A DNA stretch of 20,000 nt from an uncultured virus (IMG/VR IMGVR_UViG_3300038679_000356). Lineage: Duplodnaviria > Heunggongvirae > Uroviricota > Caudoviricetes. Each line of letters starts with the position of its first letter. Position 1 is the stretch's first letter. The notes under the pieces were generated by a model. That model did no database searches and had not been told where the DNA came from. It saw nothing but the letters and a program-made list of their open reading frames with translations. The position numbers and the translations under genes were made by a program. The stretch is from IMG/VR virus record IMGVR_UViG_3300038679_000356, one strand, 5' to 3'. Positions 3,126 to 17,849 of the stretch are shown in pieces.

Positions 3126-4214
3126 TCAACGAATAATGTTTCTCACGATAGATGTTCCTTCCTCGTACCATGGGATATCCATTCTCTCTGACATGCGAAG
3201 CAAAACATCATCATTGATTCTCGTTGGACGCTTACTGTTCCATTCAAGAATATCATTAAAAGGACGCTCCATATGCATAAAATGAACGAGAAACCCCTTC
3301 TGATGTGACTGAGAGACATACTCCCGACGAGTCCGGCGCTTCAAGTTCAAGGCGTCAAAAACAAATGGTTGTCCACGCTCAAGAGAGTCAAAAAAACGCT
3401 GGCGAACGATTTCCGCAACACGCCCTTCCTGCTGTTGCCATTTAACGCCAAGCTCATTGCGAACCGCATCCGGCTCAATGACTGGGAGGTTTGAATTTTT
3501 TGACCAGGTGCTTTTTCCAGACCCAGGCAACCCACACATAAAATAAACTGGACCTTTCATCGGGTGAGGGTTGAGGGTTCTTCCTCTACGAAGAAACATG
3601 CAGGCACCAACACCATCAACGGCAGGATCAATATATGGTGAGCCCCATATGCCAAGACTAAGGCAACGCTCACGCCATTCCTTTGCCTTCGCATAATGCT
3701 GGGTCTTATCGACGCAAATGCGCCCACCGAGATCGGCGGCATAAAGGAGTCCAAGCAGCCGAGTGTCGCAAGCGATCGATATCGATTTACACACGAGATC
3801 ATCCCCCTTGCGGAATCCCACAGCCATATGATTTGCAATAAGCCTGCAAATGAGTTCTCGGGTATCCACATCGAACTTGAATTCCGGAATGTCAGTTTTG
3901 TACATGAACTCTCTCGCCACAATACTGCCAATGTGCTCATGGGCGTGAGCTGTAATGCGTCCGTCTTCGGACACGGCAGTACACTGCGGCTTTCCGCAAT
4001 CATGTAACAGAGCGGCTGTTTCCACGATCGTTTTCTGCTCGTTAGAAAGATCATCAAACTCTTGCAATTCACGCAACGATTGGACAACCATTTTTGTGTG
4101 AACGAGAACATCCCCTTCAGCATGATATTTTGCGTCTTGCGAACACTTTTTCATTGACGCAAATAATGGGATAGAATCAATCTTATTGAGATTAAAAGGA
4201 ATATAACGGCTCAT
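3126..4214 (-). CDS. HD-domain phosphohydrolase fused to a P-loop (polynucleotide kinase-like) domain
   Basis: HAEGDVLVHT, LLHDCGK, HEHIG, NHM, AADLGGR (HD); MCGLPGSGKST, PDAVR, FDALNL (PNK-type P-loop). RBS AGGAG. Confidence 0.9.
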   Translation of the reverse strand: MSRYIPFNLNKIDSIPLFASMKKCSQDAKYHAEGDVLVHTKMVVQSLRELQEFDDLSNEQKTIVETAALLHDCGKPQCTAVSEDGRITAHAHEHIGSIVAREFMYKTDIPEFKFDVDTRELICRLIANHMAVGFRKGDDLVCKSISIACDTRLLGLLYAADLGGRICVDKTQHYAKAKEWRERCLSLGIWGSPYIDPAVDGVGACMFLRRGRTLNPHPMKGPVYFMCGLPGSGKSTWSKNSNLPVIEPDAVRNELGVKWQQQEGRVAEIVRQRFFDSLERGQPFVFDALNLKRRTRREYVSQSHQKGFLVHFMHMERPFNDILEWNSKRPTRINDDVLLRMSERMDIPWYEEGTSIVRNIIR

Positions 4215-4252
4215 TCATAACTCCTAAAATCGTTTAACGTCTCATCGATCAA

Positions 4253-4756
4253 TCAGGAATCCTTCGTTTTCCCATAATGGCGCGCCACCCACTGACAAAG
4301 ATCGTGATCAATACCGATCATCTCCAAGACAGCCAATCCATTCCCGATCGAAAGCATGGGAAACAGGCGTCCATCAATCGGCATCCGCTGTTCGGCACAT
4401 GTCTTTCTGAGATCACACTCAGCCTGGCAATCCTCATCTCGAATCAAAATAAACATTGTTCCATCCGGACTAATGACAGCATCACCCGGAGACAGTCGCG
4501 CAGAAAGAAAAAGAAGACCAGGCATAGCTGCGTCTTCAATATGAATGGCTTCAAAATAAGACAGATCCCCATGTTCAATCGCCTCGACTCCAGCATTGGA
4601 TGATTGCCCATAGCCAACATCCTGCATTGGCACTCGCAAGTAAGGGTCATATTCCGAGATGGGTGGAGGAGAGGTGATCATCGTATTGCTGTATACCCCC
4701 TTATACTTCACCGCATAGTAGTGAACATCAACGAAAAACGCTTTCTCTTCTGACAT
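4253..4756 (-). CDS. Hypothetical protein
   Basis: Strong RBS AAGGAG and its own promoter at 4783-4810; no motif recognised. Confidence 0.75.
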   Translation of the reverse strand: MSEEKAFFVDVHYYAVKYKGVYSNTMITSPPPISEYDPYLRVPMQDVGYGQSSNAGVEAIEHGDLSYFEAIHIEDAAMPGLLFLSARLSPGDAVISPDGTMFILIRDEDCQAECDLRKTCAEQRMPIDGRLFPMLSIGNGLAVLEMIGIDHDLCQWVARHYGKTKDS

Positions 4757-4782
4757 ATCTTACTCCTTGGTTTCTTAATATA

Positions 4783-4810
4783 ATTATATCCTACTTGCGT
4801 AAGAAGTCAA
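4783..4810 (-). promoter_or_regulatory. Sigma70-like promoter TTGACT-N16-TATAAT
   Basis: Near-consensus hexamers; the -35 overlaps the upstream gene's TGA stop. Confidence 0.75.
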
Positions 4811-5388
4811 GGAGAACTTATGTCATATTTCGAAACAACAGATGAGATCCATTTTTTATGATCAGCAGCAAAGCTGTAAAACTCATGTTGGAGCGAATTC
4901 CACCTTGAAGGAATCAATATACCGCCAGAACCGAAACCATTAACGTTACGATCCTGATCATCAAACAAAAACTTATTCCCCAAAGGTTGTACCAATCCTT
5001 TATTGTAGGAAAATACAATGCGCTTTGTAGAAAGCTCAGGCATAAACTTCTTGATCCAATGCATTTTGCCCGTGGCGCACGCTCCCATGGCATTCGGATT
5101 GCATTCATATGGTAGGGACGTGAGAACATGAATGTTCTCCCACTTTCCGTTCGCCAAAGTCAGTGCAGCATCAATCACTGAGTTCATCCATGGGGTCGGT
5201 GGAATATCACTCCACCATTGACAATTTAAACTTTCAAAAAAGTCAATTGCATCAACGTTGAAAATTGAAATAAAATCGAATGGGACCCCTTTCTTTTCAT
5301 TGAGATCCACACAAGTTTTTTCAGCGATTTGACAACTCAAATCGACTAGAACATCGTCCATGTCAAGAAAAACACTCACTTTGTGCAT
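4807..5388 (-). CDS. HAD-family 5'(3')-deoxyribonucleotidase-like phosphatase
   Basis: N-terminal FLDMDDVLVD (DxD motif I), VLTS (motif II), K...W, LFDD (motif IV), C-terminal WN. Confidence 0.85.
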   Translation of the reverse strand: MHKVSVFLDMDDVLVDLSCQIAEKTCVDLNEKKGVPFDFISIFNVDAIDFFESLNCQWWSDIPPTPWMNSVIDAALTLANGKWENIHVLTSLPYECNPNAMGACATGKMHWIKKFMPELSTKRIVFSYNKGLVQPLGNKFLFDDQDRNVNGFGSGGILIPSRWNSLQHEFYSFAADHKKWISSVVSKYDISSP

Positions 5389-6476
5389 CGTTCTCTCGCT
5401 TTTAAGTGGATGCGATAATATAACTTTTTAATTGACGCCACATCAACATTGTCCGGGAGATCTCTTTTGGGGAACTCTCGTTTTACATCTGCAAGCAATG
5501 AATTGGATAGGTCAGAAACCAACTTATATGTCGGCTTCCCCATTTTTATGTCCATTACTTGTTTCTGCATCTCTCCTTCAAGTCTAACAAGCGGACTGCC
5601 TGTTCGCGCAATATTCAAACAAGAATACAGAAGACGAATACAATGAGACATGTTTTTCGCATCATACTTACGCTCTTCACCATCAACGTCAAACCACCGT
5701 TTGTCGTTCCGGCTATTTCTCCAGTCCCAATAGTTTTTCCAGTCTTCGCACGCTTTTTTGTAGCGCACTTCATCAAAAAGCATGATATATCGGAACTTTG
5801 ATTCTTCATCATCCATAGGAATAGAAGAACATACTGGAGGTCCATCGTCTCGAAAGACTCCTTTTGCTTCATCTCCGTAATAATACAGTCGATAGCAATT
5901 CGGCATATGCTCAACGGCTGCGGCGTTGTACTGTGATATATCTACGCCAGTCTCGTTTAATGGAACTGGACGCCATGGAGTGATAATGCCGTTGCTCATT
6001 ACGTTAGAATAGAGATAGCACATGGAGGCACGAATGGGGCGATCGTGAGGTTGAGGATTGTTTACCCATCGATTCTGTGATGAGGCACGCTTAATCTGTG
6101 ACTCAGCATACCCGCAAAACGAATCCTCAGCCTTTTTCGTTACAAAGAGATCCCGAACAGCAAGAACCTCATCCATTATAGACGAGGTTGACAGTACGTA
6201 TTGGTCTGGAACATACAACAACTCAATGATGTTCGGATTACACGCCGCCAACAACTCAATGAATCTCTTCATTTCGTAGTAAACAACATCATTGGTTCCA
6301 ACATCAACTTGCTTTATTTGATCTGAAAGCAAGCCATTCGTAACAAAGTCGAAATCATTGAGGAAGAATACTCCGCGAACGTCGGTATCACTCGTCGGCG
6401 TGGCAAGTCCGTATAATTTACTTCCAGTAATGCACGAGTATACGACATTGTTTGGAACTTCATCAGATTTAGACAT
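5376..6476 (-). CDS. Pol-beta superfamily nucleotidyltransferase (RlaP/YcgL-like)
   Basis: GSKLYGLATPTSDTDVRG (GS...DxD), NPNIIELL, F.GYA..Q, YDAKNMSHCIRLL. Confidence 0.88.
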   Translation of the reverse strand: MSKSDEVPNNVVYSCITGSKLYGLATPTSDTDVRGVFFLNDFDFVTNGLLSDQIKQVDVGTNDVVYYEMKRFIELLAACNPNIIELLYVPDQYVLSTSSIMDEVLAVRDLFVTKKAEDSFCGYAESQIKRASSQNRWVNNPQPHDRPIRASMCYLYSNVMSNGIITPWRPVPLNETGVDISQYNAAAVEHMPNCYRLYYYGDEAKGVFRDDGPPVCSSIPMDDEESKFRYIMLFDEVRYKKACEDWKNYWDWRNSRNDKRWFDVDGEERKYDAKNMSHCIRLLYSCLNIARTGSPLVRLEGEMQKQVMDIKMGKPTYKLVSDLSNSLLADVKREFPKRDLPDNVDVASIKKLYYRIHLKARERCTK

Positions 6477-6505
6477 GAATAATCTCTCTTTATGCTGCTC
6501 TTGTA

Positions 6506-7426
6506 CTACTCTTTGTTATCTTGCCAAAAATGGGCAAGTCCTTCCTCGCACGTACATGCTGGATACCCACCTAAAATTCGATAGGTATCAAACACCTTTT
6601 CTGTACCACAAAAGCGGCATTTGCATAGCCATTTATACGAGCGTGCTAGATGTTTACTCAGCACAACGAACGATTCGGTTTCACGACCAACAAGGTTCTC
6701 CTCAGAATGGCAATGCTTCTTTCGACACTTTTTGCACATTGTACCGTGTTCGAGAAACACGATATTCATGTTTTTGAGGTTGCCGCAGTTCACGCACTCG
6801 CACTTCCATTCTGCCTGACCATAACGATTTCGTCCAACTTTCTCAACGACAGTCCAAGCGCCAACGCGACGACCAACAATATCCAATGACCGTTCCATCT
6901 TTGGGACGACGTAATCAACTATAGTAGATATATCCGCATCAGGAGGGACGATTACATAATTATCCGACTCTTGAGAGTGATATACATCACCAGAAAACCC
7001 GATACACAACGACCATGAAACCTTGGAGTTCTTGAGAATTTGATTGCACTCACCAACTTTCTTCCAATAATCATCCTTGGCGGGAGAAACACATTGCAAT
7101 TTACTCACAGGGCGTTTAAGCATATACAAGACGCCATCGAACTTGACGTTCTTCGAGACCCATCGGAATGCGCCCTGCGCATCACGAGCTGATCGTATAT
7201 ACGTCCAATCGCCATCAACCTTGCCGGTGCGATCTTCTCTCGAAATGCAGCCACACGACTGCGTCGCTCCTTGGCGCAGTTTGCCGCCGCCAACGTGACG
7301 CATGATCCCGCATTCACACTGGCATAGCCAGGCAATTGCTGTTCGACTTTTGTACTGGGGCTGCCCGACGACAGTCCACTTTCCCACCCTCATCCCGGTC
7401 ATATCAATTGAATGATTAGCTTTCAT
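6506..7426 (-). CDS. Protein built from repeats of the Cys-rich module found N-terminal in phage HNH/AP2 homing-endonuclease-like proteins
   Basis: Repeats DMTGMRVGKWTVV..WLCQCECG..SCGC, DIVGRRVGAWTVV..WKCECVNCG..CKKC, NLVGRETESFVV..WLCKCRFCG..CTC, plus a degenerate copy DRTGKVDGDWTYI..W. Confidence 0.75.
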   Translation of the reverse strand: MKANHSIDMTGMRVGKWTVVGQPQYKSRTAIAWLCQCECGIMRHVGGGKLRQGATQSCGCISREDRTGKVDGDWTYIRSARDAQGAFRWVSKNVKFDGVLYMLKRPVSKLQCVSPAKDDYWKKVGECNQILKNSKVSWSLCIGFSGDVYHSQESDNYVIVPPDADISTIVDYVVPKMERSLDIVGRRVGAWTVVEKVGRNRYGQAEWKCECVNCGNLKNMNIVFLEHGTMCKKCRKKHCHSEENLVGRETESFVVLSKHLARSYKWLCKCRFCGTEKVFDTYRILGGYPACTCEEGLAHFWQDNKE

Positions 7427-7470
7427 ACTTCCTTCTGTTCCTCTGTGTAGTGGGTTCTATAGTTACGGTT

Positions 7471-7498
7471 AATATATACTAAGTTTTTAGAAAATCAA
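7471..7498 (-). promoter_or_regulatory. Sigma70-like promoter TTGATT-N16-TATATT
   Basis: Hexamers and spacing identical to the sites at 9889-9916 and 16794-16821. Confidence 0.7.
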
Positions 7499-8478
7499 GT
7501 TTCTTCTGGAGTACCCCTATTCGCAAATCTTGTACGTATGTCATTATTCATCCCAAGCGAAACAGATCCAGAGCGAAGTATTTCGAGAATTGAACACACA
7601 AACGACAGGTCATCACAGGTCAGTCCATCTGCACCGATTGATTCAAGGCAATCCTTCATGGAACCGACAATTCCGCGATGCACCATCAGTTTACACATAC
7701 CATAGGCGTTCATCAGTTTTCCCATTGTCGATATAGCAGTCATCATAACTAATCTGCGTCGCGCCTTATCTTCAAATATTTTACCGGCTTCATAAAAACT
7801 GGCGTTGACTTCCTCTAACGCAGAAGATGCCAGGGCTATAGATGCATCTTTTTCCTTATGATTTGTCTCGCTTTCTGGAACTTTTGCTGACCACTCATGC
7901 AAATCAATAATTTCATCGGCGTTCATCTTCAATTTGACTGACATGTATTGTTGCACAGAGGCGACTGCGACACGAGCCCCACATTCGCGCATTGACACCA
8001 GGAGAGGTTCAAAATCACCATCGGCGCTAACCAAGATGAAGCAGTCGTATTTCCCACGGTGGAAAATTTCCATGGATTTGACAACGAGTTGAACATCAAC
8101 ATCAGCTTTCCCGTTGCGACGTTCGGTGGTATATACCATATACCCATAGTAACGAAGCATGTTATGAAGATTATGCGTTCTGACGTATGAATCGCGATCT
8201 TCTCCAGGGTTAGAGATGGGGGCGAAGCATATCGGCGTACAATCGTCATTTGGGTTGACGAGATAGTTCTTCAATTCGGAGTAATCACCTCCGATCGGAC
8301 CAATTCGCCCATTATCAGCATGAACACTTTTCATCTGGCAATATAGGTTGGCAAGATCAACGGCAATCAGTGTTCTCCCCCTCGTTTTTATCTTCTCCAC
8401 TTTTTCTACCTCTATTTGAGGTGAAGGGAGTTTTTCTGCTTGATCACGATCTTTTTTAGGGTTTTTTCTTCTTGACAT
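7495..8478 (-). CDS. NYN (LabA/DUF88, PIN-like) domain ribonuclease with a C-terminal extension
   Basis: VDLANL, KADVDVQL, LVSADGDFEPL, GARVAV, ADEIIDL. Start at ATG 8478 (MSRRK); TTGAAT-N18-TATAAT lies upstream. Confidence 0.88.
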   Translation of the reverse strand: MSRRKNPKKDRDQAEKLPSPQIEVEKVEKIKTRGRTLIAVDLANLYCQMKSVHADNGRIGPIGGDYSELKNYLVNPNDDCTPICFAPISNPGEDRDSYVRTHNLHNMLRYYGYMVYTTERRNGKADVDVQLVVKSMEIFHRGKYDCFILVSADGDFEPLLVSMRECGARVAVASVQQYMSVKLKMNADEIIDLHEWSAKVPESETNHKEKDASIALASSALEEVNASFYEAGKIFEDKARRRLVMMTAISTMGKLMNAYGMCKLMVHRGIVGSMKDCLESIGADGLTCDDLSFVCSILEILRSGSVSLGMNNDIRTRFANRGTPEET

Positions 8479-8557
8479 TTTATTTCTCTCTTGTTTCTTT
8501 TTGAAGATATTATAGTCCGCCACACTCTCATCATTCAAAAATACCGTGTATACGCAC

Positions 8558-8596
8558 AAAAACAAGAAGGGCGGATGCTTTTGCAACCGCCCTTCT
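8558..8596 (-). terminator. Intrinsic terminator after hsp20
   Basis: Inverted repeat AGAAGGGCGG...CCGCCCTTCT followed by a T-rich tract on the minus strand. Confidence 0.8.
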
Positions 8597-8986: not shown

Positions 8987-9004
8987 AGCAACGACCATGC
9001 CAAA
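8987..9004 (-). promoter_or_regulatory. Sigma54 (-24/-12) promoter upstream of hsp20
   Basis: Minus strand TTTGGCATGGTCGTTGCT = TGGCA-N6-TTGCT, with exact GG-N10-GC spacing. Confidence 0.7.
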
Positions 9005-9097
9005 CATATAATGAGGCGAAAATGTGTAATTAAGCTCAAAAACAGCGACTTAAAGTCTCTACTAAAGAGTCTTTTTGGCACACTGTTTGGCACAAAC

Positions 9098-9130
9098 AAA
9101 AAACCGCAGAAGAAATCTTCTGCGGTTTTT
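9098..9130 (-). terminator. Intrinsic terminator immediately after the tmRNA
   Basis: Perfect inverted repeat AAAAACCGCAGAAGA / TCTTCTGCGGTTTTT with A/T tails. Confidence 0.85.
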
Positions 9131-9545
9131 GGTGGACTCGGCGGGAGTCGAACCCGCGTGTTGCAACTGAACATTATCCAGACTTCTACACGTTTATCTA
9201 CCGTTTTCATAAGACCCCCGAGATGATCGATAGAACTCTTGCTCGGAGAGAATTCGGGATTCTTTGTCCTTGACCTACGGCGAGAGGCTCCCTATAGCCT
9301 ACGCTTTCGACTATTCCCACGTCAGACTCATCCGACAGTTAACGCCTTACGCCAGGACGGGAACTGGGTATCCTGGCGTTCCACTTACCGCCGTTAGGCG
9401 GCTAGATTGCTCTGTCGCTGATTAGGCGGCGCGAGCGAACTGCATAGGTTCGGCAGTTGTTTGTTGACCGATATTTTACGAAGCCAACGGTCATCTTCGA
9501 CGTGCCATCTGGCTGTACCGGAGCAATCGAAACCGGATCGAGCCC
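9130..9545 (-). ncRNA. ssrA: tmRNA (416 nt); predicted tag (A)AEPMQFARAA at 9454-9422
   Basis: 5' GGGCUCGAUCCGGUUUCGA pairs with 3' ...GCGGGUUCGACUCCCGC-CGAGUCC-ACCA (T arm, G3.U Ala determinant, encoded CCA). A pk1-like region is followed by ACAACU-GCC resume context and a reading frame ending GCC GCC UAA. Confidence 0.95.
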
Positions 9546-9560
9546 ATGATGAAAAAAAAA

Positions 9561-9690
9561 CCTCACGTAAGTTAAAGCAGCTTTTTTGGGTAAACATTGC
9601 CAGAATTGAACTGGCAACACTCAGTCTTGCACACTGATGCTCTTCCAATTGAGCTAAATGTTTGTAAGCCACTAAGGTTAGGACGTGAGG
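9561..9690 (-). ncRNA. Structured RNA 'A': conserved scaffold enclosing a 73-nt tRNA-like cloverleaf (9663-9591, GCA at the anticodon position); candidate Y-like RNA
   Basis: Stems CCUCACGU/ACGUGAGG and AGUGGCUU/AAGCUGCU; acceptor-like AAACAUU/AAUGUUU; D arm GCUC-AAUUGGAA-GAGC; UCAGU-GUGCAAG-ACUGA; T arm GCCAG-UUCAAUU-CUGGC. Followed by U9. Confidence 0.85.
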
Positions 9691-9700
9691 AAAGTAAAGA

Positions 9701-9851
9701 GGTACGCAAGTTAAAGCAGCATTGGATTTTCTCTCAATCGCTTGAGAGAGAACCCGGTAACTATTGGAGTTGAACCAATGACATCGAATTTATTAGATTC
9801 GCGCTCTACCAAGTGAGCTAAGTTTGTATGCCGCTAAGGTTGGGGCGTACC
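9701..9851 (-). ncRNA. Structured RNA 'B': same scaffold enclosing a tRNA-like module (AAU at the anticodon position, 4-bp acceptor) plus a GNRA hairpin; candidate Y-like RNA
   Basis: Stems GGUACGC/GCGUACC and AGCGGCAU/AUGCUGCU; AACU/AGUU; D arm GCUC-ACUUGGUA-GAGC; CGAAU-CUAAUAA-AUUCG; T arm AUUGG-UUCAACU-CCAAU; extra hairpin UCUCUCAA-GCGA-UUGAGAGA. Confidence 0.85.
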
Positions 9852-9864
9852 AAATCTGTTAAGG

Positions 9865-9876
9865 TTGTCAAAGAGC
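9865..9876 (-). promoter_or_regulatory. boxA-like antitermination element
   Basis: GCTCTTTGACAA between the promoter and the first RNA, close to the rrn boxA consensus GCTCTTTAACA. Confidence 0.65.
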
Positions 9877-9888
9877 TTTCACATCATC

Positions 9889-9916
9889 AATATAGGCTAT
9901 ACCAATAAATAATCAA
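9889..9916 (-). promoter_or_regulatory. Promoter of the ncRNA cluster, TTGATT-N16-TATATT
   Basis: Hexamers identical to two other intergenic sites; A/T tracts lie upstream. Confidence 0.72.
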
Positions 9917-9978
9917 GAGTTCCTTTGATAAAAAAAACTGGATTTTTTTGAAGTCACCTGAAACGCATGGCTACAAAG

Positions 9979-10010
9979 AAAAACTGCCGCACGAATTTAT
10001 CGTGCGGCAG
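9979..10010 (-). terminator. Intrinsic terminator closing the protein block before the ncRNA promoter
   Basis: CTGCCGCACGA / TCGTGCGGCAG stem followed by TTTTTCTTT on the minus strand. Confidence 0.85.
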
Positions 10011-10070
10011 CTCCAGGATAAGTGCGGATTATCGTACCTGGATTTTGTGGGAGGCAATTGTTAATGCATG

Positions 10071-11102
10071 TTACTTGGTGATGCGACGACCTACTTTCTT
10101 CCGAATCACGCTCACTCCGTTGTTTTTCGGAGCGGCTTTGCCAACTGAAAACACAACCCTCTCTGGAACAATCTCAAACACCTGCTTGGTGCCGGAAATG
10201 TTTGCTCGCTTCCACTTTACCATGTAATTGGCGTAACGAGAGATGGACTGACGAGTCGAACGCTCCTTACCACCATCCCATTCTTTCCTGTAGAAAGAAT
10301 TCCAGGCACCGCAGAAGGCATAAAGATTCTCTACATCAGAGCGCAACTTATGGATATCATCCATGGCGATCTTACGCGGATCACCACGACGGAGTCCGTC
10401 ATTCATTGCGAACCCACGAATAAATTCAGCAGCGGCGTCTTGGTCCTTACTGTAGCGTACGATCCACATACACACCGCCAGAATATGGCGACGATGCAAA
10501 ATTTCTCTGGCGATACGTTCGCCCCCGTCGATAAGGGCAACAACCTTCTTCAATGGGGCAAGCCACTCCGTCATGAGAGACAACACAAAATCTTTGTTGT
10601 TGAAGCGATAGTCATTCCTTGAACTTGATGACTTGAAGCCCTTGGCAATCACACGAATTGCACCAGACAAAAGAGTACGCTCCGTCTTCGTCAAACCAAG
10701 TTTTTGACACACATCCATGGAGTTGAATATATCCGCCTCCGTTCGACGCATGTGAATATCGAACCTGGAGTAGATCGCAGCGACTTCATCTTGACTGTTG
10801 CAGTCATACTCTTGAACCGTGAAGTTATATGACTGTCCGCTCTTGACGACAGCGGATAGAGTATGCTGCCCATTCGCCAAAAGATACTCTCCATTGAGGC
10901 GACACATAGCGATAATGTTTGTTGGAGTGAATGTGCCATTGCACATAAAGTTGGCAAGATCATCAACGTGCCATTCACGAATGGGGCGCTGCTTATCGTA
11001 CTTGCAGTTTGTAAGAATCTGCAACGCCGCTTTTGGACCGATGTTCATTGTTTTTGTTTTTGACGGGATGCTGGTTTTCACCAGAGTGGCTGTCTCTATC
11101 AT
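10071..11102 (-). CDS. Protein with an N-terminal ParB/Srx-like domain
   Basis: QRPIREWHVDDLA..M..G.F...YLLANGQHTLSAVV resembles the ParB-like DGQHR motif. Confidence 0.7.
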   Translation of the reverse strand: MIETATLVKTSIPSKTKTMNIGPKAALQILTNCKYDKQRPIREWHVDDLANFMCNGTFTPTNIIAMCRLNGEYLLANGQHTLSAVVKSGQSYNFTVQEYDCNSQDEVAAIYSRFDIHMRRTEADIFNSMDVCQKLGLTKTERTLLSGAIRVIAKGFKSSSSRNDYRFNNKDFVLSLMTEWLAPLKKVVALIDGGERIAREILHRRHILAVCMWIVRYSKDQDAAAEFIRGFAMNDGLRRGDPRKIAMDDIHKLRSDVENLYAFCGAWNSFYRKEWDGGKERSTRQSISRYANYMVKWKRANISGTKQVFEIVPERVVFSVGKAAPKNNGVSVIRKKVGRRITK

Positions 11103-11141: not shown

Positions 11142-11777
11142 TTAAGAAATTTTCAAATCAAGAAGCGTGAACGACTTTGAAGTTTTAACACCATGTTGAA
11201 TAAACGCAATAATCAACTCGATGGTGATTGCGGAGGTGATTACGGCAAGATTCCTGGCAAGAGGAACGTGACATGGGTCAACGCCAGAGTCTCCCTTCGG
11301 AACAATATACGACTCATTCCATACCGCTTCCGAATAGCCGTCACCCATACCAGAATGAATGCAATGCATTTTTTTGGCGAGGCAATAGTCATAAACGATT
11401 CGGCGAGACAAGGCGTTGTCAAATGCATCAACAACAATATCACTGCCTCTCAGTAATTTGTCGACATTGTTTTCGTCAAGTCGTTTGTCAACACATTCGA
11501 TAACAACTCCGACTGCATCTTCAATGATATTGCCGATAGCCATAACCTTTTTCGACCCGCAATCGACACGAGAATATGGTTGTGTACACAAATTAGATGG
11601 ATCAACCCGGTCAAAGTCAATCATCTTAATGGCTTCAAACCCGCAACGAGCCATGCCTTCTGCGATATTGGCTCCAAGAGCACCAGCGCCACAAATAACC
11701 ACCTTGGTAGAAGACATCTTTGTCATGACAGCTTTGGTGCGAAAGGCGGTTTCATGCTGATGAACTGCATCGTCCAT
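11142..11777 (-). CDS. ThiF/MoeB/E1-like adenylyltransferase
   Basis: VVICGAGALG, IDFDRVDPSNLCTQ, KKV, VVDAFDN...R; no CxxC zinc pairs; a Cys in DPCH. Confidence 0.92.
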   Translation of the reverse strand: MDDAVHQHETAFRTKAVMTKMSSTKVVICGAGALGANIAEGMARCGFEAIKMIDFDRVDPSNLCTQPYSRVDCGSKKVMAIGNIIEDAVGVVIECVDKRLDENNVDKLLRGSDIVVDAFDNALSRRIVYDYCLAKKMHCIHSGMGDGYSEAVWNESYIVPKGDSGVDPCHVPLARNLAVITSAITIELIIAFIQHGVKTSKSFTLLDLKIS

Positions 11778-11794
11778 AAAAAATCCTTCTTGTT

Positions 11795-12643
11795 TTACAT
11801 TCCATCATCGCGTCGTTCAACGACATCGACAAGTGTTTGTAGATCAAAATCGTTATCTCGTCCAGAAAGACACATACCGGCGGACATAACCGTCATATCC
11901 GACTTCATGATTGAAGAGGAGGAGCGTCGTCCAGATCCTGTTTTCCATTCCACGTTCCAAAAATCTCCACGATCAACAAACGACAGCATTTTTCCACCGC
12001 CTCGCTCAAGTGCTTTGCGGATTTTGTCCTCATCTGTTGGCGGACATGAAACGCCAACAACTGGTTTTGGATCGATAGCCAACTTAAATGCAGCTTCATC
12101 TTCTGCTGACAATCCAGAAATGCGGCGCAGCTTGCGAACATCATACGACTCTGTCATTCCTACCCTTACTGCAGGAATGTCACTTCGGTCTGGTCCTTCA
12201 TACCACCAAATTGAACCGTCATATCTGGCTGTGATGGCATGAAATCTTGTTCCAGAATCAACAAGACGAATTGCCACGGGTGTTATGCTGCCAAATTTTG
12301 CCTCATACGATCCACGGTTCCTGGGCAACGCTGCCCAAGAAGAATCGATTCCCTGAAAGCATAACCGGAACCTGGCTTTTGGGAATTGCGAAAGATATGA
12401 AGAGATCTGCCTTTTGGGGGCTTCCCCTTCTAGCTTTGCAACGTTTGAAGAAGATTCCACCGAGAACCTTCCCCAGCCTTCAAAGTTTGGATCAGAAGGG
12501 CGAAGGCGAACAACAATTCCAGCTAATTTAACGCAGATCCTACCGCGAGGGACACAGGGAGCCACAAACGGGGAGGCGATCGAGCTGTCATGCTCGGCAG
12601 CCACCCTGTCAATAAGATCGAATATGTCCCGTTTCATCATCAT
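11795..12643 (-). CDS. Hypothetical protein with C-terminal SAGMCLSG.D.DFDL motif
   Basis: 282-aa ORF, translationally coupled (ATGA) to the vWA gene and ending 17 bp before the E1-like gene. Confidence 0.8.
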   Translation of the reverse strand: MMMKRDIFDLIDRVAAEHDSSIASPFVAPCVPRGRICVKLAGIVVRLRPSDPNFEGWGRFSVESSSNVAKLEGEAPKRQISSYLSQFPKARFRLCFQGIDSSWAALPRNRGSYEAKFGSITPVAIRLVDSGTRFHAITARYDGSIWWYEGPDRSDIPAVRVGMTESYDVRKLRRISGLSAEDEAAFKLAIDPKPVVGVSCPPTDEDKIRKALERGGGKMLSFVDRGDFWNVEWKTGSGRRSSSSIMKSDMTVMSAGMCLSGRDNDFDLQTLVDVVERRDDGM

Positions 12644-13425
12644 TCTAAAGATTGAATCTTTCCGTAAAGAGAATAGGCGTAAGACAGCTTAAAGCCTAAT
12701 TTCTCAGCAATTGACTCAATGTTTTCGATGCCACATTCCTTTATGGCGTTATGGAGCTTTTCCATGTCTTCCGAAGTAGTCTGCAATTCACTCATAAGGG
12801 CATTAATGGCTTTGATTGGATTATTAATGTCGCCCAATTTACCGCCAGTCATATCAGCGATACGCTCGAATTCCTTAGCGACGCGACCGACTGACAATGG
12901 AATGGCATAAACTATTGCACCGACCTTTTCAGCAGCAGCAGTGCATTCATGTAACCCAATTCCAGATGGAGTTTTTTTGCTCCACTTACCAGAATTTTTT
13001 AAACCTGCTAACACTTCAACATCATGTTCCATAATTGCGTGAGGCATAGCGTCACCAACTAAAACGATGATTCTGGCAGATGTGCCAGATCGCCAGTCAA
13101 TACCAGTAGCGGCAGCATAAACACCATCATATACAGCCTCTGGCTCATCACCACCGCCGCTGGGGGCGATACGCTGAATGACGGACTTGATCTTATCAGA
13201 ATTTCCAAGAGCGGATTTACCAAATTTGTGAACCTTCGTGACAAACGAAGTGTCTTCTGGAGGATGATCACGAAACTCAACAACACCACACATGATATCG
13301 AGTTTACTAGAGGCGTCGTCAATGATTCGTTTAATATTGGTGCGAGCCATCGAAATGAAAGGCGACATACTTCCAGTCGTGTCGATGACAAAAACAACAT
13401 CAACTTTATTAAATGTAGTGGTCAT
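12640..13425 (-). CDS. von Willebrand factor A domain protein
   Basis: MIDAS-type DVVFVIDTTGSM, GVVEFRDH, GGGDEPEAV, IVLVGDAMPH. Confidence 0.92.
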   Translation of the reverse strand: MTTTFNKVDVVFVIDTTGSMSPFISMARTNIKRIIDDASSKLDIMCGVVEFRDHPPEDTSFVTKVHKFGKSALGNSDKIKSVIQRIAPSGGGDEPEAVYDGVYAAATGIDWRSGTSARIIVLVGDAMPHAIMEHDVEVLAGLKNSGKWSKKTPSGIGLHECTAAAEKVGAIVYAIPLSVGRVAKEFERIADMTGGKLGDINNPIKAINALMSELQTTSEDMEKLHNAIKECGIENIESIAEKLGFKLSYAYSLYGKIQSLE

Positions 13426-13519: not shown

Positions 13520-13711
13520 TCAGCCGTAGACAGCTTCCGGACGAACCATATATTCTCCGGCATCGTTCTTGGCGACGACCAAACTGTTCAGATCATCGAC
13601 TGCGACATCGAGTTGCTGAGCAGCAATTTCCCTTACTTGGGCGTCCGTGGACCCTTCTTTGATTTCGACTTCGAAGTCGTAAGAGGTACCGTTGTATCTG
13701 ACGTGGAGCAT
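13520..13711 (-). CDS. Small putative beta-grasp (ubiquitin-like) protein with C-terminal Gly
   Basis: 63 aa; strand-strand-helix-strand-strand pattern (LHVRY/SYDFEV/DAQVREIAAQQL/LVVAK/YMVRP) ending PEAVYG; RBS GAAGGAG; E1-like gene three genes downstream. The fold is inferred. Confidence 0.72.
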   Translation of the reverse strand: MLHVRYNGTSYDFEVEIKEGSTDAQVREIAAQQLDVAVDDLNSLVVAKNDAGEYMVRPEAVYG

Positions 13712-15276
13712 GTTGCTTCTCCTTCTTCTGATTCTGGTTCTGCTTTAAGGATTGCGTCCACCGTGGACGCCCTCTCTATTTTTTTCAAGGACTTGAAGAG
13801 ACAATCCTCAGCGTCTTCCCTTGTCGGAAGAGGCGTTTCAGCAATCTCCATAAGGAGAGCCAATCGGGATGGGCGAGACAGCATAGAAACAAGATTGCCG
13901 AATCCATAGTAATCACCCTCAAATACGAGAGTGTCTACTGATGCGCCAACTTCCCGCAAACGTTTCTGACAATAATCCTTGTATTCGCCGACTCTAACAA
14001 TCGTCACATTCGGTGACGCACCCGTTGCCTTGCAATACTTCTGATATGCTTCACCGGAATAGGGCGAGGCATTTTCCTGTTCATCAGTCACGATGACGAC
14101 CTGTTCTACATAGCGCTTTGCCCGTTCCAGAGCAGCAAAGCCAGAACCAACGGAAGTTGAACCGGATGCGGTAAGTCCACGGAAAGCCTTGATCCAATCA
14201 GTCGCTTCCTTACCTTCCGACTTAATCTCCATCGCCATATCGTTGAAAGCATAAACATACAAGTCAGACTCACAAACTCCGGAAAGAATACCGGCAATGT
14301 GTGTGCCGACTGCGATTGCCACATGCAGAGATCCAGAACGGTCAACCAAAATTGCGGTCGGGCACTTGATGCGCCCCTTCGCCTTGACGGTCTCGTTCGT
14401 CGCCTTTTCGAGTTTCTTTCGAGTCTCTGCATCAACGCCTACGACATCAGCAGCCACCGCTGCCTTGGTGCCAGACGCACGCTTGTCCTTTGACACTTTG
14501 TCAATCTTGGCGTGGACCATCTTGCGCATCTCTTCATCATCCATCGCACCACGGCGCTTCAACTGACCAATGCAGTTGACAACTTCCTGCGGACTCATGG
14601 ACTCAATGAGAGCGACCAAGATTGGCGCAGTAATCGCAGGAACGGCACCGACCGCAATCGTGAACGGAATGCGCTTCTCAACGATCATGCGAGCACGATC
14701 AACGTCAGACATATCTTTGTCCGACAAAACTTTAACAAAGTATGGTGCCGAACCCTCTGGAGGTTCGTTTTTGAACAGGATGTCGTTAGCACGCGGCGTC
14801 GGTTTGACGTGCAATGATGCATACATCGTCCGCATAGCGGTCTTCGACCGAACAACGGTGGCGTCAAACCACTTCTCGTTCATTTCTCGTGTGCGCAAGT
14901 ACATTTTGACAGCAGTACGAAATGCGGTCGGCACGCTGTTGAAATGGATTTTCAAATGCCGAAGAACACGCGGAATCTGGAACGGAGGAAGATCAACAAG
15001 CATTGCAAACGCTGCACTACGGTGCTCCTCAAGCTTAGAGAGAAACATCGTAGCAATGAAAACCTCCTTATGATCACGAATATCACCATTCAGGTAATAC
15101 CACGCAGCCAGGCGTCCATAAAACGTCGGATCGGCGAGCATGAATTCCTTATGCAAGGAAATGATATCCTTAACTTCCCGATGAGGAGTGCTCAGCAAGC
15201 TGTTGATGATGCCAAGCCGAACGTCACGCTCCTGAGAGGAAGCTTCCTTTACCACACTCTTCTTAGCCATAATCAT
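13633..15276 (-). CDS. Ro60/TROVE-like protein (helical N-terminal region + C-terminal vWA)
   Basis: Helical, basic N-terminal ~300 aa with DPTFYGRLAAW...IRD (TROVE-like); vWA ILVDRSGS, GSTS, VVIVTDEQEN. Size and layout fit Ro60. Start at 15276 or 15270. Confidence 0.75.
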   Translation of the reverse strand: MIMAKKSVVKEASSQERDVRLGIINSLLSTPHREVKDIISLHKEFMLADPTFYGRLAAWYYLNGDIRDHKEVFIATMFLSKLEEHRSAAFAMLVDLPPFQIPRVLRHLKIHFNSVPTAFRTAVKMYLRTREMNEKWFDATVVRSKTAMRTMYASLHVKPTPRANDILFKNEPPEGSAPYFVKVLSDKDMSDVDRARMIVEKRIPFTIAVGAVPAITAPILVALIESMSPQEVVNCIGQLKRRGAMDDEEMRKMVHAKIDKVSKDKRASGTKAAVAADVVGVDAETRKKLEKATNETVKAKGRIKCPTAILVDRSGSLHVAIAVGTHIAGILSGVCESDLYVYAFNDMAMEIKSEGKEATDWIKAFRGLTASGSTSVGSGFAALERAKRYVEQVVIVTDEQENASPYSGEAYQKYCKATGASPNVTIVRVGEYKDYCQKRLREVGASVDTLVFEGDYYGFGNLVSMLSRPSRLALLMEIAETPLPTREDAEDCLFKSLKKIERASTVDAILKAEPESEEGEATCSTSDTTVPLTTSKSKSKKGPRTPK

Positions 15277-15750: not shown

Positions 15751-15802
15751 TGTGTTCCTCTCTATGGTTCTATGTGCCGGTGAGATTATGCAGTACATTC
15801 AA

Positions 15803-15830
15803 AAGATAGCTTAAACAAAATGACTTTCAA
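15803..15830 (-). promoter_or_regulatory. Sigma70-like promoter TTGAAA-N16-TATCTT for dut and the Ro block
   Basis: Intergenic, directly after a terminator, 16-bp spacer. Confidence 0.6.
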
Positions 15831-15841
15831 GCATTGTTGAT

Positions 15842-15876
15842 AAAAAAAATCCCTGATTTTTGTAATCCAGGGATTT
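15842..15876 (-). terminator. Intrinsic terminator
   Basis: AAATCCCTG...CAGGGATTT stem running into T8 on the minus strand. Confidence 0.75.
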
Positions 15877-15933
15877 AGCTTTAATCGAGTTGGGATCTAC
15901 CGTGTCAGTGATACTCGGTAGAGTATCCACACT
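15842..15933 (-). ncRNA. Candidate small RNA (~90 nt) between a promoter and a terminator
   Basis: TTGACA-N17-TAATAT at 15940-15968; GAUACUC-UACC-GAGUAUC hairpin and an alternative UCUACCG/CGGUAGA pairing; no ORF. Confidence 0.45.
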
Positions 15934-15968: not shown

Positions 15969-16173
15969 GTGAAGAATTGAAAAATATATTGACACATGAG
16001 TGTCCTCCGTACGAAACCGGGCGCATTGAGTAGTCAACGCCTTCGATGGTGATTGTGATAGCACCGCATGCACAGTTCCGGCTCGGTCTGGAAAAGAACA
16101 TTGAAAAGCTGGAGAAAATTGCTTCTTCCATTGCCCCTTTTCTTAATTTTTCACATTCGTCCCGCCATTTCAT
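15958..16173 (-). CDS. Hypothetical protein
   Basis: Tiles closely after the 16182-16415 ORF on the coding strand. Confidence 0.5.
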   Translation of the reverse strand: MKWRDECEKLRKGAMEEAIFSSFSMFFSRPSRNCACGAITITIEGVDYSMRPVSYGGHSCVNIFFNSSLDN

Positions 16174-16181
16174 CGAGCCTG

Positions 16182-16415
16182 CTACTTTTGCTCAATATTG
16201 AGGCAACGTGGCTTGATGAGAATTTCTGGGATAACAAAGTGTGTGTATGGATAAACATTCTTATCCACATTCGACTCCTTGATCTCAAGGATATAAGTCG
16301 TGCCAATAACGGCTTGTCCCTCATTGGCAATTCCACAAACAACACCAACACCACTTACTGCTTTCGAAGCGGAAAATTCAACAACATCACCTTGCTTATA
16401 CAAATGATTGCTCAT
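16182..16415 (-). CDS. Small hypothetical protein, possible SH3-like beta barrel
   Basis: YKQGDVVEF...GVGVVCG...YILE pattern; RBS-like AAAGGG. Confidence 0.65.
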   Translation of the reverse strand: MSNHLYKQGDVVEFSASKAVSGVGVVCGIANEGQAVIGTTYILEIKESNVDKNVYPYTHFVIPEILIKPRCLNIEQK

Positions 16416-16680: not shown

Positions 16681-16711
16681 ATTCTTTATCCATTATGATG
16701 TAATGGGGAAT

Positions 16712-16781
16712 AATCACGCAAGTTTCAACAGCAACGATAACTACCAAAAAGTTTGTACGCCGTTAATGTTAGGGCGTGACT
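16712..16781 (-). ncRNA. Structured RNA 'C': minimal (70-nt) copy of the A/B scaffold without the tRNA module
   Basis: AGUCACGC-CCUAACAUU-AACGGCG-UACA-AACU-UUUUGGU-AGUU-AUCGU-UGCUGUU-GAAACUU-GCGUGAUU. Same stems and loop motifs as RNAs A and B, with compensatory changes; promoter 12 bp upstream. Confidence 0.8.
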
Positions 16782-16793
16782 TTCCTTAGCAAT

Positions 16794-16821
16794 AATATAA
16801 CCAGGAGCAGAAAACAATCAA
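16794..16821 (-). promoter_or_regulatory. Promoter TTGATT-N16-TATATT driving RNA C
   Basis: Same hexamers and spacing as the promoter of the RNA A/B/tmRNA cluster. Confidence 0.72.
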
Positions 16822-16825
16822 GCAA

Positions 16826-17173
16826 TCAACGACGTTTTTTGTTGGATTTCGATAATCTGTGCTTGAAATTAGCAGTCGTACGTCCCTTTTTCCATTTCAC
16901 ATAGTTGCCAAAACCTTCATGCGTCATAATTTTCTGTTCCGAATCATAAGCGGCAGCCAGAACCTTTTCCGGGATCAAGGCGTGAAGCTGTTTATGGCAA
17001 TCGGAACACATCAATGATTGCAGATTGGACAACTCCAATCTCGTAACACATCGGCGCTTCGCTTCTTTTGCCAACAATGTTTTAGGAACGAGGTGATGCC
17101 AAGTCAAATCATTTTCAGCGCCACAAGCAAAACAAACTTTATTTGGTGGAGTTGTAGATTGATCGTAGTCCAT
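16826..17173 (-). CDS. Small HNH-family endonuclease-like protein (start 17173 or 17197)
   Basis: CFACG...LTWHHLVPK...LMCSDCHKQLH. Confidence 0.82.
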   Translation of the reverse strand: MDYDQSTTPPNKVCFACGAENDLTWHHLVPKTLLAKEAKRRCVTRLELSNLQSLMCSDCHKQLHALIPEKVLAAAYDSEQKIMTHEGFGNYVKWKKGRTTANFKHRLSKSNKKRR

Positions 17174-17849
17174 TGTTAAGCGATCTCCTTGGATCATTTC
17201 TCATCTCTACAATAATCCTAGATGCGGTATCTGCCAACTCTCCTTGTCCACTACGAGCTACCTCCGCCACAAAAGCAGATAAAAAATCAACCTTATCAAT
17301 CTGTTCATCATTGATGAGATATTCTTTTGACGCTAGGGAAAACTCTGGGGCGACCAACGCTTTTGGAGGCGAAATAATATGTGGTAGATTAAGCTTAACA
17401 CAGTCGATACTTGACGTATGGAATGTTGTCAGCATGTCTACCCTTTGCTTGTTATGTTCTTCTGGACACTCAATTTTATACTTCCCTTTCACTACAACAA
17501 TATATCGTGGTGACATCCCACGAATAGACAACAAAATTTCATCGCCTGAAACATCACAAAACGTCGCGCCAGACCTCAATACGTTGCGTAAAATGCACCG
17601 AAGATCGTGCGGCGCGACATACAGATGTGGCTCATCATCATAGGCGTCGATGGCATAGAATACAACCAAAGGCTCCGACAAGAACCCTTGTGCAGCCAAC
17701 GCCATAGCGCCAGTCTCATCATCCGAATCAACATGTGCCCCGGATGAAAGATAAAACCGGTATAAGGCAAGAGGCTTGCCATAGATCCGTAACAGGTACG
17801 ACTCTCCAGGGCAAGCCTCAACGAGATTGACGATTTGATTCGCGATCAC
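17139..17849 (-). CDS. Hypothetical protein
   Basis: 236-aa ORF; its GTG start overlaps the upstream stop (GTGA). Confidence 0.75.
   Translation of the reverse strand: MIANQIVNLVEACPGESYLLRIYGKPLALYRFYLSSGAHVDSDDETGAMALAAQGFLSEPLVVFYAIDAYDDEPHLYVAPHDLRCILRNVLRSGATFCDVSGDEILLSIRGMSPRYIVVVKGKYKIECPEEHNKQRVDMLTTFHTSSIDCVKLNLPHIISPPKALVAPEFSLASKEYLINDEQIDKVDFLSAFVAEVARSGQGELADTASRIIVEMRNDPRRSLNNGLRSIYNSTK

Follow-up and report, generated by a model that had tools for sequence, protein, structure and literature searches.

A predicted Ro60-like protein and candidate Y-RNA-like RNAs that carry tRNA mimics on a common scaffold in an uncultured phage and in cyanobacteria

The stretch of DNA analysed here, referred to as the window, comprises 20,000 nucleotides from an uncultured virus of the Caudoviricetes (IMG/VR record IMGVR_UViG_3300038679_000356) and was found in groundwater metagenome runs. 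All long open reading frames (ORFs) of the window are on the minus strand, and together they resemble a large phage. Two adjacent minus-strand RNA units, RNA B (9851-9701) and RNA A (9690-9561), are separated by 10 nt, and each carries a tRNA-like module within a scaffold that is not part of a tRNA. The gene of a divergent Ro60-like protein is located 3.8 kb upstream of RNA B on the same strand, and a third copy of the scaffold precedes that gene. The features that concern these RNAs and the protein are:

16713..16780, minus strand: third scaffold copy, with a 15-nt payload only; intergenic, 1.4 kb upstream of the Ro60-like gene
13633..15276, minus strand: divergent Ro60-like protein, 547 aa; predicted helical-repeat ring plus vWA domain with intact residues of the MIDAS (metal ion-dependent adhesion site)
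9701..9851, minus strand: RNA B; closing stem formed by 9851-9845 with 9707-9701; tRNA-like module and an extra GCGA-capped hairpin
9824-9759, minus strand: tRNA-like module of RNA B; anticodon AAU, 4-bp acceptor
9561..9690, minus strand: RNA A; closing stem formed by 9690-9683 with 9568-9561; carries a tRNA-like module
9663-9591, minus strand: tRNA-like module of RNA A; anticodon GCA, 7-bp acceptor, A73, CCC

RNA A and RNA B are built from the same elements in the same order. The 5' half comprises the closing stem, CCYAACCUU, the second stem (AGYGGCWU), ACAAAC and the tRNA module; the 3' half comprises ACC, the partner strand of the second stem, UUAACUU and the 3' strand of the closing stem. 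The closing stem is 8 bp long in RNA A (CCUCACGU/ACGUGAGG, followed by U9) and 7 bp long in RNA B (GGUACGC/GCGUACC). The minimum-free-energy folds, -41.2 kcal/mol for RNA A (z score of -3.42) and -50.6 kcal/mol for RNA B (z score of -5.44), reproduce the scaffold and the cloverleaf arms, and none of 200 shuffled sequences was as stable in either case. The scaffold in these folds is an interrupted duplex of ~ 16–20 bp.

The modules match the Rfam tRNA model (RF00005) with 59.4 bits for RNA A and 47.8 bits for RNA B, against a gathering threshold of 29 bits, and ARAGORN assigns RNA A as tRNA-Cys(GCA). Both align to the model in the normal D-anticodon-T order with 7-nt anticodon loops. The RNA B match covers model positions 4–67 only, leaving a 4-bp acceptor that is followed by ACCGGG. 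The 7-bp acceptor of RNA A is followed by ACCCA and enclosed on each side by ~ 30 nt of paired scaffold. As encoded, neither RNA presents a seven-bp acceptor with a free 5' end and a 3' NCCA. The original prediction, made from the letters of the window alone, had described the common layout, a non-tRNA scaffold whose stems vary yet keep pairing, A73 followed by CCCA together with G32/G38 in RNA A, and the AAU anticodon, 4-bp acceptor, missing CCA and extra GNRA hairpin (a GCGA loop) in RNA B, as well as a D, anticodon, T order attached through the acceptor end. The element order, the folds, the alignment to the tRNA model and the stem covariation detailed below agree with it on all of these. 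Identity for cysteinyl-tRNA synthetase (CysRS) requires U73, which conflicts with the combination of A73 and a GCA anticodon in RNA A. The blocked acceptor ends and this mismatch argue against charging of the two RNAs, and it can be argued that the intact anticodon loops and elbows are the surfaces that they present.

A 20-nt scaffold motif, allowing up to 3 mismatches, occurs three times in the window compared with 0.01 occurrences expected, and none of 200 shuffled sequences reached three. The scaffold consensus consists of the closing stem, an asymmetric internal loop CCYRAY / (A/G)ACUU, the second stem and a single-stranded UACAWAC junction. The Rfam Y_RNA and YrlA models gave no match in 9000-10400 of the window at E ≤ 10, and the RNAs of the window do not reach the YrlA (RF02553) gathering score of 69 bits. 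No other Rfam family covers the scaffold at E ≤ 10, none matches either RNA over its full length, and a blastn search of 9100-9960 against GenBank phages found no match. When IMG/VR was scanned with the 20-nt phage motif, the one match lay inside a coding region with no tRNA and was set aside as a chance match.

Covariation was evaluated in relatives of the window RNAs, taken for the most part from the cyanobacterial loci described below. An alignment of copies with minimal payloads was derived from 40 copies of at most 90 nt, which gave 32 non-redundant copies and, after one mis-parsed row was dropped, 31. In this alignment 89.3% of the cells are paired, compared with 75.6% in shuffles, and compensatory changes on both sides occur in 15 of the 16 scaffold pairs; none of 500 shuffles reached any of the measures, and slid registers reduce the pairing to 32–48%. 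A second alignment, of copies with tRNA payloads, holds 69 members, obtained by redundancy removal from 121 copies of 114–133 nt with the addition of one copy from the phage LR756511.1. RNAalifold detects compensatory changes in 19 of its 22 pairs, including the anticodon and T stems. In a set of copies defined by the motif only, the closing stem, taken to the first downstream (A/G)ACUU, is fully paired in 194 of 253 copies, and averages 6.28 of 7 pairs versus 5.07 for shuffled partners (maximum of 5.17 in 200 shuffles). Pairing in the second stem played no part in the choice of copies. As in Y RNAs, the folds and the covariation bring the ends together in a stem-internal loop-stem structure.

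The 547-aa protein was compared with proteins of known sequence and structure. A phmmer search against PDB sequences yielded none at E ≤ 1, and a weak PHROG match carries the label 'RNA-binding protein'. There are 329 homologs at E ≤ 1e-3, most of which are cyanobacterial proteins termed 'vWA domain-containing', ~ 477 aa in length and ~ 48% identical. The AlphaFold2 model, calculated with 33 sequences (pLDDT of 82, pTM of 0.70), is entirely helical in its N-terminal part and ends in a C-terminal vWA domain. It matches Ro60 along its whole length: the first 12 PDB entries identified by Foldseek are all Ro60/Rsr/TROVE entries, with E values of 1e-11 to 4e-9 over ~ 480–546 alignment columns. Structure alignment using VIA-align places Ro60-type entries in all of the top 10 positions, the best with a Z score of 21.5 and an RMSD of 4.2 over 438 residues. 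The Xenopus, human and Deinococcus Ro60 structures align with Z scores of 19.8–21.5 over 432–440 residues, whereas entries that contain only a vWA domain rank after Ro60, with Z scores of at most 16.6 over ~ 156 aligned residues. A sequence profile of the family matches the TROVE protein of Thermus phage phiLo, colinear over positions 26–396, and the MIDAS residues D312, S314, S316, T374 and D398 are invariant in the alignment. Thus the model, the two structure comparisons and the invariant residues agree on the Ro60 architecture of a helical-repeat ring followed by a vWA domain with its MIDAS, and, on the strength of the predicted structure, the 547-aa protein is a divergent Ro60 paralog that the TROVE model overlooks. 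A canonical TROVE protein is also present elsewhere in two of the genomes compared (G002 and G003); none was found anywhere in genome G001 or in LR756511.1. One cyanobacterial homolog (P0109) has 927 aa and includes intein/LAGLIDADG domains.

Cyanobacterial loci were collected by scanning one genome per species with the Calothrix ortholog of the protein as query, which gave 65 loci. The copy counts depend on the motif definitions used; a stringent scripted search, which required the motif and at least 6 contiguous closing-stem pairs, gave a set of 247 copies. At least one copy is present in 63 of the 65 loci around the Ro60-like orthologs. The copies of these loci, 222 upstream and 12 downstream of the gene, are every one on the strand of the gene at a median distance of 925 nt, and an upstream copy exists in 61 of the 62 loci that have more than 400 nt of upstream sequence. 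With the motif-only definition, which requires no pairing, 261 matches fall on the gene strand versus 13 on the opposite strand in 777 kb. Rfam and ARAGORN identified tRNA-like matches upstream on the gene's strand in 10 of 11 loci examined and none in the remaining one (L058); the two tRNA-like matches of locus L038 are 5 kb away and score like ordinary tRNAs. Two acidobacterial loci, L060 and L065, likewise have both the RNA and the protein. Locus L012 contains at least 6 tandem scaffold copies, with ACAUAC in place of the phage ACAAAC, and a payload-free copy is located 67 nt before its gene. A search of the cyanobacterial loci with the phage-specific pattern (ACAAAC) returned scattered, chance-like matches and was discarded, the bacterial version being ACAUAC.

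A covariance model, R1, was built from the mini-payload copies, the third copy of the window among them. In the window R1 recovers RNA A with 43.1 bits (E of 2e-7) and the mini copy at 16780-16713 with 56.9 bits (E of 1.5e-10), the latter being a training sequence. In three whole cyanobacterial genomes of 7.6–9.5 Mb, for each of which 150 first-look candidates were scored, 10 of the 12 R1 matches are just upstream of the Ro60-like gene. Among 121 sampled cyanobacterial genomes, R1 found matches in 13 and the protein query in 12, and 108 contain neither; the RNA is present in 12/12 protein-positive genomes versus 1/109 protein-negative ones, the exception (G040) having a single RNA match. Scaffold copies also occur away from the Ro60-like gene, at G001:C2:10772-10890 and on other contigs of G014 and G017, including a second replicon or contig. 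A separate scaffold RNA class of ~ 205 nt is found downstream of the Ro60-like gene in several Nostocales (L019 11810-12015, L022 6785-6990, L024 10737-10941, L030 7641-7843, L051 8217-8420, L055/L056 8238-8441, L057 9527-9729 and L070 10774-10979).

The only good GenBank phage relative of the 547-aa protein is encoded by LR756511.1, a 595 kb uncultured phage (40% identity, E of 3e-117). A loose scaffold pattern has 9 matches in that genome, 8 of which are on the gene strand in the 3 kb that immediately precede the ortholog, versus 1+1 matches for a reversed-pattern control. By reading, this upstream stretch contains at least 14 scaffold copies in two topologies. The 'open' form, as in the window, encloses full tRNAs, tiny hairpins or an unknown RNA of ~ 270 nt; two of its tRNA members encode CCA after the discriminator, and one of these scores 69.3 bits. 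In the 'capped' form a GAAA loop seals the closing stem and the element is placed inside an acceptor-plus-T-arm RNA. RNA A (GCA) and the LR756511.1 member at 16141-16264 (CGA) have a common acceptor and different anticodons, and the ordinary tRNA arrays farther downstream in LR756511.1 contain no scaffold. Five IMG/VR contigs encode Ro60-like relatives with 36–39% identity, and R1 matches adjoin the gene in 4 of the 5 at E ≤ 0.03. Contig L084 has three R1 matches at E < 1e-4, contig L086 has its matches on the strand opposite to the Ro60-like gene, and the IMG/VR matches contain ARAGORN tRNAs.

Several details of LR756511.1 (locus L002) are recorded separately. Capped hairpins are found at 15801-15927, 16010-16140, 16265-16385, 17590-18100 and 18505-18610. 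The RNAs around them keep only the 7-bp acceptor and the T arm, a second mode of joining the scaffold to a tRNA-like body, and every one of them is preceded or accompanied by a TTGACA-type promoter-like sequence of its own. The copy at 16685-17000 encloses the RNA-like stretch of ~ 270 nt, which has several GNRA-capped hairpins and no Rfam match. The open and capped forms recall permuted self-cleaving ribozymes; this idea was dropped for lack of support, since no ribozyme or other Rfam family matched the scaffold at E ≤ 10 in the window or at the gathering score in 12 loci.

The payloads of the 247 stringent copies fall into three classes. Copy lengths peak at 119–122 nt (84/247), and ARAGORN calls a tRNA in 106/247. 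The called anticodons are scattered (AUU 14, UAG 13, CAU 11 and CAA 10) and include the stop-reading UUA, CUA and UCA, and 'Leu' calls are made without a long variable arm. Regardless of anticodon, the bacterial members have one short acceptor in common (CAUAC/GUAUG) and no CCA. The anticodon loop is 7 nt long in 63 of the 69 aligned members, of which 56/63 have U33 and 62/63 a purine at 37. There are 48 different anticodon loops, and UUUAGGU, CUAUUAA and CUCAUAA recur on different stems in different genera. In a second class, 28/247 copies by a crude motif-order test, the payload is permuted: the D arm follows the T arm, and the acceptor stem is closed. With the YrlA model, the payload of L012 3849-4027 scores 31 bits, below the gathering score, and its fold shows the permuted closed-acceptor architecture; the best YrlA scores among the relatives are 31–34 bits. 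The third class is a small hairpin alone. In 32 loci the last copy is no more than 200 nt away from the start of the gene, and in 19 of them it belongs to this class.

The remaining features in the vicinity of the RNAs and of the Ro60-like gene are:

13520..13711, minus strand: 63-aa ORF of no known family, overlapping in a different frame with the 3' end of the gene of the Ro60-like protein
12640..13425, minus strand: VWA_4 protein of 261 aa, immediately downstream of the Ro60-like gene; the Calothrix ortholog also has a homolog of it downstream
10014-9980, minus strand: terminator-like hairpin of the preceding gene, upstream of the RNA B unit
9889..9916, minus strand: sigma-70-like promoter match TTGATT-16-TATATT upstream of RNA B, a consensus match only
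9552..9560, minus strand: U9 tract directly 3' of the RNA A closing stem, 6 nt before the tmRNA 5' end; may be a terminator or a spacer
9130..9545, minus strand: tmRNA, 101.7 bits, tag AEPMQFARAA, 15 nt downstream of RNA A
9130-9099, minus strand: terminator-like hairpin after the tmRNA
7495-8586, minus strand: NYN-domain protein

The promoter-like sequence at 9916-9889, RNA B, RNA A, the U9 tract, the tmRNA and its terminator-like hairpin have the appearance of a single transcription unit. Metatranscriptome contigs from two libraries of two studies cover the tmRNA only (9177-9536 and 9241-9536, with no differences). That no such contig extends over RNA A and RNA B is uninformative, as small structured RNAs are often missing from contigs. 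Both RNA contigs end at 9536, whereas DNA contigs continue across RNA A, a weak hint that the tmRNA is a molecule separate from RNA A.

Elsewhere the window encodes the phage-type proteins thymidylate synthase, sigma factor, dUTPase, UvrD and NAD-ligase, along with an RlaP-type nucleotidyltransferase, an HD plus kinase protein, the NYN protein, Hsp20 and HNH endonucleases. Downstream of the tmRNA, at 3126-8586 on the minus strand, a series of genes of the RNA-repair type comprises Hsp20, the NYN-domain protein, an HNH endonuclease, the RlaP nucleotidyltransferase, a 5'-nucleotidase-like protein and an HD plus P-loop kinase protein. Homologs of the 63-aa ORF (63–78 aa, E of 1e-13 to 6e-15) are located beside RNA arrays of phages, cyanobacteria and an acidobacterial metagenome-assembled genome, among them LR756511.1 (L002 18167-18403), L012 (3258-3458), L052 and L060. 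Two proteins encoded at 11142-12643 on the minus strand, one ThiF/E1-like and the other of 282 aa and without a known family, both have counterparts near the Ro60-like gene of LR756511.1 (L002 22479-23372 and 25969-26622) and were not found in the eight comparison loci searched, most of them cyanobacterial. A neighbouring 343-aa protein has no IMG/VR match and, among phages, one match only, with 25% identity.

From the observed architecture, covariation, Ro60 fold (in a predicted structure), genomic linkage and co-occurrence, it is probable that RNA A and RNA B are members of a new family of Y-RNA-like RNAs and that the divergent Ro60 is bound by the scaffold of this family. The same scaffold bears tRNA-order, permuted YrlA-like and mini-hairpin payloads, which places it where YrlA has its Ro60-binding stem. 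The scaffold alone is shared by every payload class, it is inherited together with the Ro60-like gene, and in the YrlA-like members it stands in the position of the Ro60 stem. On these grounds the scaffold, with its paired 5' and 3' ends, is taken to be the protein-binding module and the counterpart of the Ro60-binding stem in known Y RNAs. Its loop-proximal strands may also resemble the Ro60-binding helix of animal Y RNAs. RNA A and RNA B would accumulate as species of about 130 and 151 nt. Their payload is exchangeable, and in the window it is a complete tRNA mimic with an elbow and a 7-nt anticodon loop, which would not be chargeable as transcribed because it is joined through a blocked acceptor end. 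By analogy with known Y RNAs, the tRNA replica may recruit or occupy a factor that recognises tRNA, and the ribonucleoprotein may present tRNA shapes to tRNA-binding factors or use them to gate or tether the Ro60-like ring. The phage role is probably in a tRNA-directed conflict with the host, given the tmRNA and the RNA-repair-type enzymes nearby. Since a mini copy precedes the gene, its mRNA leader may be subject to autoregulation.

A number of observations weigh against this assignment. The Pfam TROVE model (PF05731) does not match the 547-aa protein at E ≤ 10, Pfam and NCBIfam assign it to no family, and the link to Ro60 at the sequence level is marginal (E of 0.001, to the phiLo protein). 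The closing stem was selected for in the copy set, which makes its pairing statistics given above partly circular, and RNA B is missed by R1 at E ≤ 1. The defining feature of the Ro60 site in known Y RNAs is a CGAA or GNCGAAN0-1G motif on the 5' side of the stem, as described in PMC4201824 and PMC12135203; GNCGAAN0-1G is present in only 2/247 and CGAA in 11/247 of the scaffold 5' parts. Four genes separate the Ro60-like gene from RNA A and RNA B, which lie downstream of it, unlike the direct upstream position in bacteria. Finally, the 7-bp acceptor of RNA A and the CCA of two LR756511.1 members indicate that some phage members might be processed. Nonetheless, the placement agrees with that described for Y RNAs, which are encoded near the Ro60 ortholog, on the same strand and within ~ 4 kb (Chen et al. 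2014, PMC4201824): in the window RNA B is 3.8 kb downstream and the mini copy 1.4 kb upstream of the gene.

It is improbable, though it deserves consideration, that the scaffold is instead a processing or stability cassette, which joins the ends of each unit for an RNase (an RNase III-like site or the NYN nuclease), and that the Ro60-like protein, if it binds, recognises payloads or other RNAs. Tandem units as close as RNA B and RNA A need separation or tolerance of multimers, the scaffold contains the interrupted duplex of ~ 16–20 bp, payload-free copies occur in intergenic and leader positions, and a NYN-domain protein is encoded at 7495-8586. However, the single-stranded loop and junction are conserved across phages and cyanobacteria even though the Ro60-like proteins are 36–49% identical, which argues for a dedicated, co-inherited recognition partner. 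The scaffold co-occurs with the Ro60-like gene, as counted above, and with no nuclease tested, and it is missing from the ordinary tRNA arrays of LR756511.1. Such a cassette may coexist with a scaffold that binds the Ro60-like protein.

A second alternative, for which the probability is low, regards RNA A and RNA B as precursors of chargeable tRNA-Cys and tRNA-Ile whose flanks are a pairing leader and trailer, to be matured by RNase P, 3' trimming and CCA addition. A precedent is the M. smegmatis YrlA, described in PMC4201824 as cleaved by RNase P and provided with CCA in vivo. The scores with the Rfam tRNA model, the 7-bp acceptor of RNA A after a single-stranded leader, and the two CCA-encoding members of LR756511.1, one at 69.3 bits, point in the same direction. 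RNA B, with its 4-bp acceptor and no CCA, does not fit, nor does the single short acceptor of the bacterial members, which is the same whatever the anticodon and lacks CCA; RNA A and LR756511.1 16141-16264 likewise combine one acceptor with differing anticodons. Odd anticodons (AUU 14 times; UUA, CUA and UCA; 'Leu' without a long variable arm), the A73 and GCA combination in conflict with the U73 need of CysRS, and the non-tRNA payloads on the same scaffold are further evidence to the contrary. Precursors are thus unlikely for RNA B and the bacterial members, and less so for RNA A and the two CCA-bearing members of LR756511.1. Lastly, decaying tRNA pseudogenes or functionless integration repeats of a mobile element are suggested by the location next to the gene of a tmRNA, a well-known target of integration, and by the HNH endonuclease genes nearby, but are very improbable in view of the compensatory covariation in both scaffold stems and the tRNA arms, the retention of U33 (56/63) and of a purine at 37 (62/63) in the anticodon loops, the conservation across cyanobacteria and phages in tight linkage to one protein family, and the LR756511.1 array, whose locus has no tmRNA.

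Beyond the proposed binding of the scaffold to the Ro60-like protein, a more speculative function can be offered tentatively. The Ro60-like ring with its library of interchangeable, unchargeable tRNA replicas might, doubtful as this is, be a sentinel or decoy for nucleases and toxins that target tRNA; a decoy role had also been put forward in the original prediction. Each replica would have an anticodon loop of its own, and several of these loops are kept across genera though unused by ordinary tRNAs. Cleavage or capture of a loop might then spare the real tRNA pool or trigger vWA-linked partners and RNA repair. It is conceivable, with similar reservation, that giant phages took over the system beside their tmRNA and repair genes and thereby blunt the anticodon-nuclease defences of the host.

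Ro60 and Y RNAs are conserved from bacteria to humans. A second Ro60 lineage, invisible to the TROVE model and for that reason missed by surveys based on TROVE annotation, would be present in about one in ten of the cyanobacterial genomes sampled and in a number of giant phages. This lineage would have its own putative RNA-recognition scaffold and would be the first for which the payload includes complete tRNA replicas that expose their anticodon loops. The occurrence of tRNA-order, permuted and minimal payloads side by side on one scaffold constitutes a natural experiment on the role of the payload. The scaffold, at ~ 66 nt, is a compact RNA element and a candidate for protein binding, and some hosts that carry the system can be cultured. 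Chen et al. searched only TROVE-annotated genomes and noted few YrlA RNAs in cyanobacteria, and section 10 of the same article leaves the role of the tRNA-like part of bacterial Y RNAs open (PMC4201824). A full-text literature search found no paper on the Ro60-like protein family or the scaffold; the cyanobacterial YrlA candidates in the supplement of PMC4201824 were outside the comparison.

The new family resembles YrlA (RF02553), described in Salmonella Typhimurium, M. smegmatis and mycobacteriophages, in its location close to a Ro60-type gene and on the strand of that gene, frequently as multiple copies (PMC4201824; 10.1101/312249). Both are modular: the 5' and 3' ends form a stem that is interrupted by an internal loop, and at its other end the RNA mimics a tRNA, with D and T arms of canonical form. 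In YrlA, as described there, the tRNA domain is permuted (T arm, closed acceptor stem-loop, D arm), has no anticodon loop and is joined through the anticodon stem, whereas RNA A and RNA B retain the unpermuted D-anticodon-T order and an anticodon loop of 7 nt, and it is the acceptor end that joins them to the scaffold. The original prediction drew this contrast with YrlA correctly for the two RNAs of the window, which are not permuted, but the distinction does not extend to the scaffold, which in cyanobacteria also bears YrlA-like permuted payloads that match the YrlA model weakly (31 bits). It did not include the divergent Ro60-fold gene upstream, nor that the scaffold is typical of the surroundings of its orthologs, so the RNAs belong in the world of Ro60 and Y RNAs and not apart from it. 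The partner of YrlA is encoded by a Ro60-type gene, and the proposed partner of the new family is a protein undetected by the TROVE model. Known Y RNAs gate the Ro60 cavity and tether Ro60 to effectors, according to PMC4201824 and 10.1101/312249.

The tRNA-like part of Yrn1 of Deinococcus radiodurans is oriented unlike that of YrlA and can be drawn with an 'anticodon arm' (PMC4201824), which indicates that Ro60 partner RNAs recruited tRNA-like modules more than once. As described there, the 'anticodon loop' of Yrn1 is 6 nt long, a D arm is not clearly present and the helix that binds Ro60 is metazoan-like; RNA A and RNA B differ in being full cloverleaves (47.8–59.4 bits) on a different scaffold. 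Thermus phage phiLo encodes a divergent Ro60, phiRo60, with the partner RNAs Yrl1 and Yrl2 upstream (PMC12135203; PDB accession numbers 9KOP and 9L5Y), and phiRo60 is the best sequence-profile and Foldseek match of the 547-aa protein. Yrl1 and Yrl2 were identified by a CGAA motif in a large internal bulge and are not reported as tRNA cloverleaves (PMC12135203). The new scaffold differs from them in its conserved loops and its tRNA payload. With ordinary phage tRNAs, the modules of RNA A and RNA B share the cloverleaf, the elbow nucleotides, U33 and the purine at 37; the family departs from such tRNAs in its closing scaffold, in its blocked or shortened acceptor ends, and in anticodons that do not fit the tRNA class or usage. 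The system probably follows the principle of Ro60 and Y RNAs, here with a protein lineage, a putative recognition scaffold and a payload topology that are all new.

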